Origin: Escherichia phage BEU42
Sequence record: OM632669.1
Length of the DNA stretch: 64,000 nt
Strand: one strand, 5' to 3'
The notes beneath the pieces were generated by a model, which was not told the origin of the DNA, did no database searches, and worked only from the letters and a program-made list of their open reading frames with translations. The number at the start of each line of letters is the position of its first letter. Position 1 is the stretch's first letter. Made by a program: the position numbers and the translations under genes. Positions 3,833 through 8,907 of the stretch are shown here, piece after piece.

Positions 3833-4039
3833 ATGTTTAAGTTTTTAGACCTTATCTGGGCAGTCATTTTGCTGGTTGCTACAGGCTTTGTATATGGCTT
3901 CTTGCTCCCATCAATGATGTCTGCTTTAGACAGCATCATTGTTGTTATGGGCTTGATAGTCTGTATTGTGTGGCCTCTTATCGTAGGCCGTATCGTTTAT
4001 CTTACAGTTAAGAAAAGGATGAGAAGAAAACATGTATAA
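3833..4039 (+). CDS. small membrane protein (2 predicted TM helices)
   Basis: ORF track gives 3797 (TTG); ATG at 3833 has GGAG 5 nt upstream; product MFKFLDLIWAVILLVATGFVYGFLLP... is hydrophobic; stop overlaps start of next gene. Confidence 0.45.
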   Translation: MFKFLDLIWAVILLVATGFVYGFLLPSMMSALDSIIVVMGLIVCIVWPLIVGRIVYLTVKKRMRRKHV

Positions 4040-4868
4040 GTACATTGCAGTAGCAATTGCAGGGCTAATCATTGCTCTAAGTTTAACGAGCTGCTATGAC
4101 CGAGTTGAACCAGGTAATGTAGGTATTATCGTTAACCGTCTCGGTGAAGATAAAGGCGTGGAAAATGAGGTTAAAGGTGTAGGCCGTTACTGGCTCACTT
4201 GGAATGAAGAACTTTATACATTCCCAACCTTTAAGCAGATGAAGACCTATGATGGTCTGTTCTACTTCCAACTGTCTGATGGTACTCAGATAGGCCACCA
4301 GATGGCTATCAGCTATAAAGTGAACCCTACTAAGGTAACTAATATCTTCCAGACGTATCGTAAGGGAGTTAATGAAATTACCGAGCAGGATTTACGCCAA
4401 CGTATTGCTGATGTACTTAACAGACAGGGTAACCTGATTAACACTGATACATTTATTGATGGTGGTAAATCTAAGCTACTAGATAGTGTCACTGACACAA
4501 TCCGTAAAGAGATGGAACCAGTGGGGATTGATATTATTGCTATCTCCTGGATTGGTGCTCCTGAATACCCTGATAACGTTAAACGTGCCATTAATGCCAA
4601 AGTAGAAGCTACTCAGAAAACTCTGCAACGTGAGCAAGAGATTCAACAACGTGTAGCTGAAGCTAATATGGAACGTGAACAAGCTAAGGGTGTAGCTGAT
4701 GCTATTCTGATTAAAGCTAAAGCAGAGGCTGATGCTATTCGTTTACGTGGTGAAGCACTCACCGAGAATCCAAATGTAATGCAACTGGAAGCTATTAATA
4801 AGTGGAATGGTACATTACCTACCACAATGATTCCTGGGGCTACTACACCTTTCGTTAATGTGAAATAA
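4032..4868 (+). CDS. SPFH/band-7 (stomatin/prohibitin-like) lipoprotein
   Basis: 278-aa ORF; N-terminal signal with lipobox-like LTSC; SPFH-like core followed by charged coiled-coil segment (EQEIQQRVAEANMEREQAKG...). Confidence 0.55.
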   Translation: MYKYIAVAIAGLIIALSLTSCYDRVEPGNVGIIVNRLGEDKGVENEVKGVGRYWLTWNEELYTFPTFKQMKTYDGLFYFQLSDGTQIGHQMAISYKVNPTKVTNIFQTYRKGVNEITEQDLRQRIADVLNRQGNLINTDTFIDGGKSKLLDSVTDTIRKEMEPVGIDIIAISWIGAPEYPDNVKRAINAKVEATQKTLQREQEIQQRVAEANMEREQAKGVADAILIKAKAEADAIRLRGEALTENPNVMQLEAINKWNGTLPTTMIPGATTPFVNVK

Positions 4869-4874
4869 CTAAGC

Positions 4875-4905
4875 AAACCCACCATTACGGTGGGTTTATT
4901 TTTTG
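4875..4905 (+). terminator. rho-independent terminator
   Basis: 9-bp stem aaacccacc/ggtgggttt then TTTATTTTTT, 7 nt after stop at 4868. Confidence 0.65.
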
Positions 4906-5156: not shown

Positions 5157-5513
5157 ATGGCTCAAGAAAAGAATCGTCGTCAGACACTTATCGAACGTAT
5201 TCAGGCCAGAATCAAATTACAGGACTTAGGCTATACCGTTAATGGTCAGCCTAGCCTCTGTCACATCTGGACTGGTTCACATTCAGGTAATGGACGCGGT
5301 GGGCAATATGGCAGGATTTCCGTGAATGGAGTTACCTCTGCAACTCACATTATTGCCTATACCCATTATCATGGTTATATCCCCAATAAGATGCAAGTAG
5401 ACCATCTCTGTAATAATCGTCTGTGCTGTAACCCTGAACATCTTGAATTGGTTACTCACCAAGAGAACCAGAGAAGAAGGGCTAAGCGTTCTAAATCTAA
5501 AGGAAATAAATAA
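5157..5513 (+). CDS. HNH endonuclease (free-standing homing endonuclease-like)
   Basis: 118-aa ORF; HNH signature VDHLCNNRLCCNPEHLELVTHQEN. Confidence 0.7.
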   Translation: MAQEKNRRQTLIERIQARIKLQDLGYTVNGQPSLCHIWTGSHSGNGRGGQYGRISVNGVTSATHIIAYTHYHGYIPNKMQVDHLCNNRLCCNPEHLELVTHQENQRRRAKRSKSKGNK

Positions 5514-5713: not shown

Positions 5714-6772
5714 ATGGCTAGTATTGATTCTATTGCCGTATGTAATCCACGGCAGGTACGTAAATTTGTTGAACACTGTATCCGTTCAGGATTGGTTCCA
5801 TTTATCACTTCATCTCCTGGTATGGGTAAATCTGCAATTGTTCATCAGATTGCAGAAGACTTTGGCCTGAAACTGATTGACCATCGTCTGTCTACTTCAG
5901 CACCAGAAGACCTGTCAGGTCTGCCTCGTTTTAAAGAAAATGGTCGTGCTGAATTTGCTCCATTTGACGAGCTATTCCCACTGGAAGGGGATACTGTACC
6001 TGAAGGATTTAATGGCTGGCTTCTCTTTCTCGATGAGTTTAACTCTGCTCGTAAAGAGATTCAGGCTGCTGCTTATAAATTGGTACTCGACCGTATGACT
6101 GGTCAGAAGAAGCTACATCCTTATGTAGCTATCGTATGTGCTGGTAACAAAGCAACTGACCGTGCCATTACTAATAACCTGTCTACAGCTATGCAATCAC
6201 GTCTTATTCATCTGGAAATGGAGACTGATTTTGATGTCTTTATGGAAGATGTAGCTATCCCTAACAAATGGGATGAGCGTGTAATTGCATTCCTGAATGC
6301 TAACCCAAATAAACTGAATGATTTTGAACCAGACCATCAAGAGAAGACTTTCTGTTGTTCTCGTACATGGGAGTTCGTTAACAAGATTGTTTCCATTCTC
6401 CCACCGGGACCGATTGATAGTGAAATGACTCTGCTATTAGCAGGCACTATCACCTCTGGTGTAGCAACATCATTCGTCCAGTTTACTCAGGTCTATAGCA
6501 ACATGGTGTCTTTGAATGAGATTTTGGATAATCCTAAGAAAGCTCGTATGCCTGAAGACAATAACCTGTTGTGGGCTGTAGTCACTTCACTGATTAACAA
6601 TACTGACGAAGATAATCATTCGAAAATCTTTGATTACGTTGAACGTATGCCATTTACGTTCAAGGTTTTGTACTACCGTTCCGTAGGTAGTCTGGTTCCA
6701 GCTTTGGTTAAATTACCGAACTGGCGTGTTGCTGCAATCACATTATCTAAATACGTTCATGGTTCCAATTAA
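5714..6772 (+). CDS. AAA+ ATPase, MoxR-like
   Basis: Walker A SSPGMGKSA, Walker B LLFLDEFNSA; 352 aa; followed by VWA protein as in MoxR-VWA pairs. Confidence 0.7.
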   Translation: MASIDSIAVCNPRQVRKFVEHCIRSGLVPFITSSPGMGKSAIVHQIAEDFGLKLIDHRLSTSAPEDLSGLPRFKENGRAEFAPFDELFPLEGDTVPEGFNGWLLFLDEFNSARKEIQAAAYKLVLDRMTGQKKLHPYVAIVCAGNKATDRAITNNLSTAMQSRLIHLEMETDFDVFMEDVAIPNKWDERVIAFLNANPNKLNDFEPDHQEKTFCCSRTWEFVNKIVSILPPGPIDSEMTLLLAGTITSGVATSFVQFTQVYSNMVSLNEILDNPKKARMPEDNNLLWAVVTSLINNTDEDNHSKIFDYVERMPFTFKVLYYRSVGSLVPALVKLPNWRVAAITLSKYVHGSN

Positions 6773-6938
6773 CAAGAAAGGAGTTACAGACCTCCTGTAT
6801 GTTGCTGGCTTTAACGGTGAAAAAATTACCGTATATGCCCCAAGTCTGGCTGCTGCTAAACAAAAGGCAGTTGAATACTTTCGTCCAAAGAAACGTGTAG
6901 CCCATACCATTTGGGTTCATCTCGCAGAGGAAAACTGA
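6762..6938 (+). CDS. hypothetical small protein (start uncertain)
   Basis: ORF track 6726..6938; in-frame ATG at 6762 (MVPINKKG...) fills gap between AAA and VWA genes. Confidence 0.25.
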   Translation, partial: VPINKKGVTDLLYVAGFNGEKITVYAPSLAAAKQKAVEYFRPKKRVAHTIWVHLAEEN

Positions 6939-6939
6939 T

Positions 6940-8082
6940 ATGTCCATGACAGATGCTCAATTAACCCGTGAATATGACAGATGTCAGGCTAAAGCCTTTA
7001 TGGGCAAAACTGCTGCATTCTTTGGTTCACTGTTATGTTCTCTGAAGTTCCGTTGGGTAAAAGATGGCTGTGATACAGCACAAACCGATGGTGAGCATCT
7101 CGAATGGAATCCTGATTGGTTTGAGAGTCTATTACCTGAATCTCGTGTAACAGTACTCATGCATGAACTATGGCATGTCGGCTTACTGCATTCTGTTCGT
7201 ATGGGTTCTCGTGACCCAGAAGTATGGAATTATGCCTGTGATATTTATATCAACAATCAGCTTATTCAGGATGGCTACAGCTTTATAGGAATCGAAAATT
7301 GCTGGAAAGACTCTAAGTATGCTGGTTGGGCTGAAGAACAAATCTATGATGACCTCATGAGCAAACAGATACGTCCTCCTAAAGCATCAGGTGCTTTTGG
7401 GGCTGGCTCAGGTGGTGACATGAAACCTTCCACTTCGAAGGCTAGTCAGGTAAATATTGTCAATAATGTAGTAAGAGCCATGCACCAACAGAAACTATCT
7501 GGTGGTTCTTTGCCTGGGGTATTACCTGGAAAAATGGAAGAAGTTATTACTCAATTCCTGAAACCAGTAGTACCGTGGCAGGTCTTACTTGAACGCTTCT
7601 TCAATGACCTGCAAGAAACTTACTACTCATGGCAACGGCCTAATCGTAGATACCCTGATATGTACCTACCATCTCCTATGGATGATGACGGTAGACTGGA
7701 ACATCTGGCTTATTTCCTCGATACATCTGGCTCCATTAAACCTAAAGATGCTTTACGCTTTAGCTCTGAAGTGGCCTATGTAAAAGAGAAATACCAGCCT
7801 CAGAAGATGACTCTAGTTCAGTTCACTACAGAGATTGTAGATGAACAAGTCATTGAAGATGGTGATAAGTTTACTGATGTCACTATCAAAGGACGGGGTG
7901 GTACTAGTCTGGTTCCTGTACGTGAGTGGATTATTAAGCATAAGCCTACTGCTGCCATTATCTTTACTGACTTAGAAGTCAGACCGATGGAGCCATTGCC
8001 ATTTGACATTCCTGTCATATGGGTAGTTATTCGTAACCCTGGTGCACAAGTTCCATTTGGGAAAGTTATTAACATTACATGA
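6940..8082 (+). CDS. VWA-domain protein with N-terminal HExxH metallopeptidase-like motif (partner of MoxR ATPase)
   Basis: 380 aa; MHELWHVGLLH motif; MIDAS-like DTSGS motif (YFLDTSGSIKP). Confidence 0.6.
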   Translation: MSMTDAQLTREYDRCQAKAFMGKTAAFFGSLLCSLKFRWVKDGCDTAQTDGEHLEWNPDWFESLLPESRVTVLMHELWHVGLLHSVRMGSRDPEVWNYACDIYINNQLIQDGYSFIGIENCWKDSKYAGWAEEQIYDDLMSKQIRPPKASGAFGAGSGGDMKPSTSKASQVNIVNNVVRAMHQQKLSGGSLPGVLPGKMEEVITQFLKPVVPWQVLLERFFNDLQETYYSWQRPNRRYPDMYLPSPMDDDGRLEHLAYFLDTSGSIKPKDALRFSSEVAYVKEKYQPQKMTLVQFTTEIVDEQVIEDGDKFTDVTIKGRGGTSLVPVREWIIKHKPTAAIIFTDLEVRPMEPLPFDIPVIWVVIRNPGAQVPFGKVINIT

Positions 8083-8884: not shown

Positions 8885-8907
8885 GCCCACTTTATGTGGG
8901 CTTTTTT
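8885..8907 (+). terminator. rho-independent terminator
   Basis: stem gcccac/gtgggc then TTTTTT; preceded by a second hairpin at about 8823-8845. Confidence 0.6.

Follow-up and report, generated by a model that had tools for sequence, protein, structure and literature searches.

What does a MoxR-type AAA+ ATPase do in a phage when its partner is a VWA protein that also carries a metallopeptidase motif? The question is raised by two neighbouring open reading frames (ORFs) in 64,000 nucleotides of Escherichia phage BEU42 (sequence record OM632669.1; this whole stretch is referred to here as the window). A reading of the window made without database searches (the original prediction) had placed them at 5714–6772 (352 amino acids) and 6940–8082 (380 amino acids) of the plus strand, and both are found there; all window coordinates below are on this strand. 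Direct translation recovered each of the motifs that had been named: Walker A (SSPGMGKS, residues 33–40; 5810–5833) and Walker B (LLFLDE, residues 103–108; 6020–6037) in the first ORF, and HELWHVGLLH (7162–7191) and DTSGS (7720–7734) in the second. The presence of these motifs is far beyond chance.

The window comes from an N4-type coliphage: over the 4 kb around the pair, identity is 100% to Escherichia phages BEU5, BEU13 and BEU14 and 98.1% to the type phage N4. The counterparts of the two ORFs in the N4 RefSeq record (NC_008720) are gp24 ('ATPase') and gp25, so that both members of the pair already have names in a classical model phage, and we use these names here. The genome scan had thus correctly rediscovered a gene pair that was already annotated, and its reading coincides with the published one: in the list of Zhao et al. 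(2009), N4 gp24 is a putative AAA ATPase and N4 gp25 a vWFA protein, neither with an assigned function, and Chan et al. (2014; PMC4193335) included the two in the 14-gene core of N4-like phages and assigned them to middle transcripts.

Here we describe the domain architecture of the two proteins, the conservation of their catalytic residues, the strict adjacency of their genes and the distribution of the pair on phages and other mobile elements. With moderate confidence, we favour an explanation in which gp24 and gp25 are non-structural proteins, a MoxR ring with a VWA–peptidase adaptor, that would act on an intracellular target outside the virion. Two points go beyond the literature searched: the distribution of the pair on mobile elements, and a link between a third gene found in bacteria and the catalytic glutamate of the gp25 family.

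gp24 as a predicted MoxR-class ATPase

gp24 (5714–6772; 98% DNA identity to N4) matches the PHROG family phrog_1297, labelled 'ATPase' (E value 1.3e-136), and gp25 matches its own PHROG family at a similar level (about 1e-136 for each). gp24 also matches, weakly, the phage CobS-type family phrog_249. The original prediction had looked to hidden Markov model (HMM) profiles of AAA_3/AAA_5, VWA and DUF2201 for support. This held for gp25, which matches DUF2201_N and the VWA-like DUF2201, and not for gp24, which has no AAA_3 match in Pfam and falls below the curated Pfam cut-offs for both AAA_5 (19.3 bits; cut-off 22) and AAA (19.6 bits; cut-off 21.2), so that the HMM search alone is equivocal. 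Bacterial homologues of gp24 exceed the AAA_5 cut-off, at 24–29 bits. A search of NCBIfam gave no usable match for either protein, and sequence and profile searches of the PDB returned nothing significant for gp24 (midasin, E value 0.0034).

Conservation and fold prediction are more informative. K39, D107/E108, N145, R163 and R217 are invariant in an alignment of 36 N4-like gp24 homologues, and the Walker A and B motifs, N145, R163 and R217 are kept across about 137 phage and bacterial homologues. G38 and K39 occur in every aligned homologue (72/73 phage-type and 62/64 bacterial, the remainder being gaps), and E108 is replaced by aspartate in 16 of the 64 bacterial sequences. Of these residues, N145 is sensor 1 and R163 the arginine finger, with R217 the probable sensor-2 residue.

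The AlphaFold2 model of gp24 (predicted local distance difference test (pLDDT) score 86.8) has an α/β core, a lid and about 90 additional C-terminal helical residues. It contains a β-hairpin after helix 2 (residues 70–82; strands 70–73 and 79–82, between β2 and β3) and a second β-hairpin (residues 132–145; strands 132–134 and 138–145) immediately ahead of N145. In the model, these hairpins sit where the helix-2 and pre-sensor-1 inserts of MoxR proteins belong, and the segment past strand 2 (RLSTSAPEDLSGLP) resembles, by its sequence, the MoxR helix-2 insert region. When the model was compared with the PDB using Foldseek, NorQ was the top match (E value 2.5e-8; template-modelling (TM) score 0.66 on the target), followed by CbbQ2 (3.4e-8) and further NorQ chains; cso-CbbQ ranked 35th, and lower scores went to MCM, dynein and midasin, as well as to the MoxR protein CHU_0153. 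These alignments span about 256 of the 352 residues, with the roughly 90 C-terminal residues lying outside them. Taken together, the predicted fold, the conserved motifs and the bacterial homologues above the AAA_5 cut-off lead us to accept gp24 as a MoxR-class ATPase, nearest to the NorQ/CbbQ group on the evidence of its model, in agreement with the original assignment.

gp25 combines a peptidase-like domain with a VWA-like domain

gp25 (6940–8082) is composed of two domains. The N-terminal domain (residues 10–245; 6967–7674) matches Pfam DUF2201_N, described as a putative metallopeptidase domain (E value 2.6e-86), which bears out the suggestion that the VWA protein has a metallopeptidase-like N-terminal part. 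The C-terminal domain (residues 256–380; 7705–8079) matches the VWA-like DUF2201 family (1.4e-46) and carries a complete MIDAS, an adhesion site that depends on a metal ion, made up of D261, S263, S265, T322 and D344. The putative zinc-site motif HELWHVGLLH contributes H75, E76, H79 and H84.

These four residues, D101, N105 and the five MIDAS residues are invariant in 34 N4-like gp25 sequences, and most of them are invariant or nearly so in 47 sequences, down to 34% identity. The zinc ligands and MIDAS residues are also kept across about 160 phage and bacterial homologues. Among the 85 phage-type sequences at least 82 have the three histidines, as do 76 of 77 bacterial ones; E76 is found in 83/83 aligned phage-type sequences (two of the 85 having gaps) and in 66 of the 76 aligned bacterial ones; and the MIDAS residues are kept in 85/85 and in at least 75/77, respectively. 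In phages, the catalytic residues of gp24 and gp25 are thus all under strong purifying selection, and both activities are therefore likely to be used.

In the AlphaFold2 model of gp25 (pLDDT 84.7), the HExxH motif lies on a helix (residues 66–81) that follows a small sheet, with H84 five residues beyond H79, a predicted placement like that in zincins. A reduced α/β domain with two predicted helices makes up the last 125 residues; its Foldseek matches in the PDB include the I domain of integrin alpha-L, the VWA domain of CLCA1, and BatB (E values 5e-4 to 2e-3; TM score about 0.49 on the target). Among viral models, gp25 matches many proteins labelled 'metallopeptidase / VWA-like' and, weakly, ORF892 of Acidianus two-tailed virus (ATV; E value 4.7e-5). 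Some members of the gp25 family give weak Pfam matches to PhageMetallopep (7e-4), SprT-like (4e-3) and M48 (6e-3), and weak matches to M56, M78, VWA_2 and VWA_CoxE also occur in the family.

Between the HExxH helix and the VWA-like domain, residues ~140–200 (7357–7540) form a Gly/Pro-rich loop that is modelled with low confidence. Within it, D160 (in 'GGDM') is invariant in N4-like phages; among 76 bacterial homologues, 36 have aspartate at this position and 39 are missing the loop.

The pair recurs in phages and on bacterial mobile elements

The gp25 family comprises 14,141 clusters of a 50%-identity protein library (E value ≤ 0.001). It is present in 669 phage records, and most of the matches listed are in genomes of 70–78 kb, the size range of N4-like phages; it also occurs in jumbo phages, rV5-like phages and a cyanophage, and tblastn identified homologues in the jumbo phages K64-1, Munch, WPEC3, GAP32 and Paride. 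Across genera, the identity of the pair is 50–60%.

To describe gene context, we used 80 viral contigs and a genome collection holding one genome per prokaryotic species, in which at least 572 gp25-family loci were found. The bacterial locus counts given here and below refer to the best 80 of these loci, with crude gene calling. Loci were found with the closer of our alignments (A2), the alignment of diverse representatives (A3) being too divergent. Among the loci with enough upstream sequence for a neighbour to be seen, a gp24 homologue lies directly upstream of the gp25 homologue on the same strand in 67/69 viral loci and in 71/72 loci of the genome collection.

The family is also found in 65 plasmid records, chiefly from Burkholderia, Paraburkholderia and Cupriavidus; 29 of the 65 carry a conjugative typing. 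On the MOBH conjugative Burkholderia plasmid pBcp895-1, the module lies between a PRTRC cassette and type IV secretion genes, and on a Rhodovastum plasmid it comes after a toprim protein. In Acidobacteria and Paraburkholderia, the conserved neighbours include PRTRC_E, ThiF, RNase H, Sipho_Gp157, VirB4, VirB11 and DnaN; in a random sample of 150 neighbouring proteins, the commonest were Sipho_Gp157, phage integrase, N6 methylase, RNase H, VirB4, VirB11, TrbL and TraI_2. By this context, the bacterial copies are carried on mobile elements.

One further record, the 75-kb Acinetobacter baumannii 'plasmid' pRBH2-3 (NZ_CP110465.1), has been deposited as a non-mobilizable plasmid. Since genes for an N4-type RNA polymerase and for the ATPase/VWA pair are both present, it looks like the genome of an N4-like phage; it was not counted as evidence from plasmids.

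A third gene accompanies the catalytic glutamate in bacteria

The bacterial modules contain ATPase and DUF2201 genes that are orthologous to gp24 and gp25, in the same order and with the same catalytic residues, and are annotated 'AAA family ATPase / hypothetical protein / VWA-like domain-containing protein'. A third gene of about 280–315 codons is present in 60 loci of the genome collection, usually between the ATPase and DUF2201 genes, and its product matches Pfam DUF3150 weakly. Searches of the PDB with the profile of this protein gave no relative, and nor did searches of the PHROGs with the members tested. Here the bacterial modules differ from N4: a search of the window for a DUF3150-like gene gave none (best E value 0.071).

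The DUF3150-like gene is present in 53 of the 56 loci with an intact HExxH motif (for example, L015:6991–7929) and absent from 10/10 loci in which the glutamate is replaced (HTxxH, HIxxH or HLxxH; Desulfobacter and Thiotrichaceae types). The association has a Fisher p value of 1e-9, a test that ignores shared ancestry, and it probably reflects one or two evolutionary events. That the third gene is missing where the glutamate has been lost suggests that its product is tied to a proteolytic activity, as a substrate, regulator or adaptor.

A different arrangement is seen in a group of environmental viral contigs from IMG/VR (L138–L164), marine ones among them, in which a protein of about 220 residues is encoded between the ATPase and DUF2201 genes (for example, L138:3267–3950) and a paralogue of about 300 residues downstream (for example, L138:5042–5965), both with a conserved LLGDD tail. 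Neither shows a detectable relationship to DUF3150; for the ~220-residue protein, the hhalign probability is below 2%. As a speculation, such an acidic C terminus could serve as a MIDAS ligand.

A model for gp24 and gp25 action

Among the closest known systems is NorQ–NorD, of the CGN subfamily of MoxR proteins (PDB 9qh4 and 9qhd). Like gp24, for which a ring is assumed by analogy, NorQ is a hexameric MoxR ATPase, and it works with a MIDAS-bearing VWA adaptor. In the cryo-electron microscopy structure (PMC13036017), a VWA finger enters the hexamer pore, the C terminus of NorD makes a second contact, and ATP drives remodelling of the adaptor linker. Earlier mutagenesis pointed to acidic client residues as what the MIDAS binds (PMC9976466), and a VWA finger hairpin entering the pore was proposed in the same study to be general for MoxR partners. 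The likeness has limits: NorQ and gp24 share only 15–18% sequence identity, the NorQ–NorD client is nitric oxide reductase, into which iron is inserted, and NorD differs from gp25 in having another N-terminal domain, a long linker, a VWA domain of 33 kDa compared with about 14 kDa, and no HExxH motif. The second-best fold match, the Rubisco activase CbbQ–CbbO (PDB 6l1q and 5c3c), likewise combines a MoxR ring with one VWA adaptor. Its client, Rubisco, is absent here. CbbO is a large protein and is not known to have a peptidase domain.

By analogy with NorQ–NorD, gp24 would form a MoxR-class hexameric ATPase ring, onto which gp25 would dock through its VWA domain. The metal of the gp25 MIDAS would capture an acidic residue of a target protein, ATP hydrolysis would pull or twist the gp25 adaptor, and the remodelled target would be cut by the HExxHxxxxH zinc site in the N-terminal half of gp25. 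The target may be a host or element protein that incoming mobile DNA meets inside the cell, in establishment, replication or counter-defence, and not a part of the virion. The pieces of this model differ in strength. The architecture and the general MoxR/VWA mode of action are very probably right. Proteolysis by gp25, predicted from its sequence, is an even call. The assignment of the target to a non-virion class is tentative. An intracellular target is favoured because the pair is shared with plasmids and integrated elements, is middle-expressed and, in roseophages, is absent from the virion proteins: the gp24 and gp25 homologues of phages RPP1 and RLP1 are not among 13 virion proteins identified by mass spectrometry.

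Several points weigh against this explanation. Ten bacterial gp25 homologues keep the three histidines and have the catalytic glutamate replaced, so that catalysis is not universal in the family. No peptidase was found among the PDB matches to the whole gp25 model, and PDB sequence and profile searches with gp25 gave nothing significant (integrin alpha-X I domain, E value 0.2; selecase MJ1213, 0.3); since no solved peptidase matches the N-terminal domain significantly, the case for proteolysis is made by the motif and the weak family matches. Residues 307–324 of gp25 are coil in the secondary-structure summary of the model, which neither confirms nor excludes a pore-entering finger. The size of the bacterial sample and the crude gene calling reduce the value of the locus counts as evidence of context. 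The literature searched yielded no functional or experimental study of gp24 or gp25, in keeping with the earlier statement that the role of the pair in phages is generally unknown: searches on DUF2201, DUF3150, PRTRC, N4 gp24/gp25 and Schitoviridae metallopeptidases gave only genome descriptions and a comparison of jumbo phages, and the phage functional-genomics papers searched mention neither gene. Finally, a location in the middle region is compatible with a role in assembly: roseophages encode virion proteins beside their gp24 and gp25 homologues, and in N4 the gene for the head decoration protein gp17 lies 2.3 kb upstream of the pair. Because of these two neighbourhoods, the preference for a non-virion target is weak.

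Alternative functions

The best-placed alternative, which we nevertheless consider unlikely, is that the pair serves as a virion-assembly chaperone and maturation protease, which would fold, process or load some structural protein, for example a component of the tail or the virion RNA polymerase of 3,500 residues. The roseophage and gp17 neighbourhoods just described speak for it, as does the universal presence of the pair in a family whose hallmark is a giant RNA polymerase carried in the virion. It also has a precedent: for group 2.2 jumbo phages, in which, as here, a MoxR AAA+ gene stands beside a gene for a vWA protein whose N-terminal part is a metallopeptidase domain, Iyer et al. (2021; PMC7824862) proposed a function in virion assembly, citing ATV. 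That paper does not discuss N4 gp24 and gp25, and the homologues described here point elsewhere. ATV itself encodes a viral MoxR/VWA pair, p618/p892, and p892 (ORF892) is the protein that weakly matches the VWA half of gp25; as cited in PMC7824862 and PMC7159879, p618/p892 has a demonstrated role in extracellular tail development. However, ATV is an archaeal virus and its pair lacks a peptidase domain. Against an assembly function stand the classification of the pair as middle genes, with the late structural genes on the opposite strand; the immediate neighbours of the pair in N4, which are the nucleotide-metabolism genes for dCTP deaminase and ThyX; and the presence of the two-gene core on conjugative plasmids and integrated elements, which have no virion, beside type IV secretion and replication genes. 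This last observation speaks, if only weakly, against a function restricted to building the virion. Of the three roles that the original prediction offered (assembly chaperone, host protein remodelling or counter-defence), pure virion assembly is the least likely, given that the module is found on conjugative plasmids.

A second alternative, and quite an unlikely one, is that the pair inserts a metal centre or reactivates an enzyme, as NorQ–NorD, CoxD–CoxE, CbbQ–CbbO and CobS–CobT do, with the histidines of gp25 holding or delivering the metal to a phage or host metalloenzyme. It would fit the nearest solved folds of gp24 (NorQ and CbbQ), the weak match of gp24 to CobS-type phrog_249 and the weak VWA_CoxE matches in the gp25 family. 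It also gains some support from the glutamate-less bacterial variants, in which H75, H79 and H84 are kept as would be expected for a non-catalytic metal site. However, the near-constancy of E76 elsewhere, in all aligned phage-type sequences and in most bacterial ones, is what characterizes a hydrolytic zincin; the weak family matches of the N-terminal domain are all to peptidases (M48, SprT-like, PhageMetallopep, M56 and M78); and no conserved client enzyme is linked to the module across loci, in which only the pair and the DUF3150-like gene recur.

It is highly improbable that the pair is a conflict system of mobile elements, acting against competitors through superinfection exclusion or anti-phage defence like the MoxR–vWA systems of Kaur et al. 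(2020; PMC7159879). Such pairs do form the core of several predicted conflict systems, the bacterial homologues of gp24 and gp25 are on mobile elements, and the N4 neighbours include a superinfection-exclusion gene and rIIA/rIIB. The VMAP/iSTAND ternary systems share the MoxR and vWA core, occasionally with a metallopeptidase fused to the vWA protein. However, the third components that define these systems (VMAP, iSTAND, FtsH and β-propeller proteins) are absent here; PADLOC models gave no match above noise for gp24 or gp25 (IetA, E value 0.026 over 27 residues); and a universal, highly conserved core of strictly lytic phages would be atypical for accessory defence cargo.

Finally, N4 RefSeq and many phage entries in GenBank, like the label of PHROG 1314, name gp25 an HNH endonuclease. 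This possibility deserves practically no credence: neither gp25 nor other family members match any HNH family in Pfam, even at E values up to 5, the histidines fall in an HExxHxxxxH motif, the C-terminal half has a VWA fold, and a true HNH protein encoded nearby, gp22, differs from it. With DUF2201_N and DUF2201 as the only Pfam families that gp25 matches in this range, the label is unsupported and, judged by sequence, is a propagated mis-annotation that apparently stems from PHROG 1314.

Neighbouring genes and a small intervening ORF

gp24 and gp25 belong to a gene block, gp21 to gp27, that also holds an HNH gene and the gene for dCTP deaminase. The block is flanked by terminator-like hairpins found with a consensus scan, one upstream (4875–4897), for which a terminator is annotated in phage AL25, and one downstream (8885–8901), with an AL25 terminator at the matching place. 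The HNH gene, gp22 (5157–5513), lies two genes upstream of gp24 and encodes a genuine HNH_3 homing-type endonuclease (E value 8.6e-20). Directly upstream of the first hairpin lies gp20 (4032–4868), an SPFH/Band 7 protein (Pfam, 1.7e-23) whose database labels vary between lipoprotein and serine protease.

A 59-codon ORF between gp24 and gp25 ('gp24.5'; 6759–6938) was overlooked in the original prediction. It overlaps the end of gp24, and its stop codon lies 1 base ahead of the gp25 ATG. Its product matches phrog_19202 (1.5e-33), and the ORF is annotated in phage AL25 and not in N4 RefSeq. The product is 49% identical to that of an ORF in the same position on a distant contig of 74 kb, on which the gp25 homologue shows just 33% identity; a counterpart was found in only 5/69 other viral loci.

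Discussion

The occurrence of the ATPase/DUF2201 pair in lytic phages, on conjugative plasmids and on integrated elements could be brought together in a single, more far-reaching reading, which we regard as rather unlikely: that the pair, joined in bacteria by the DUF3150-like protein, is one ancient 'establishment' module common to all three. Driven by ATP and targeted through its MIDAS, this protease would remove a conserved protein of the host, either a defence factor or a DNA-bound protein, on entry of foreign DNA. If so, gp24 and gp25 would represent a new class of counter-defence or takeover machine, essential in all N4-like phages.

The pair makes up 2 of only 14 genes common to all N4-like phages and is better conserved than most of the genome. 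Because close relatives are carried by conjugative megaplasmids and integrated elements, a function established in N4 would annotate a family of more than 14,000 clusters. As N4 is tractable, such a function would also show what a MoxR motor does with a protease-bearing adaptor.

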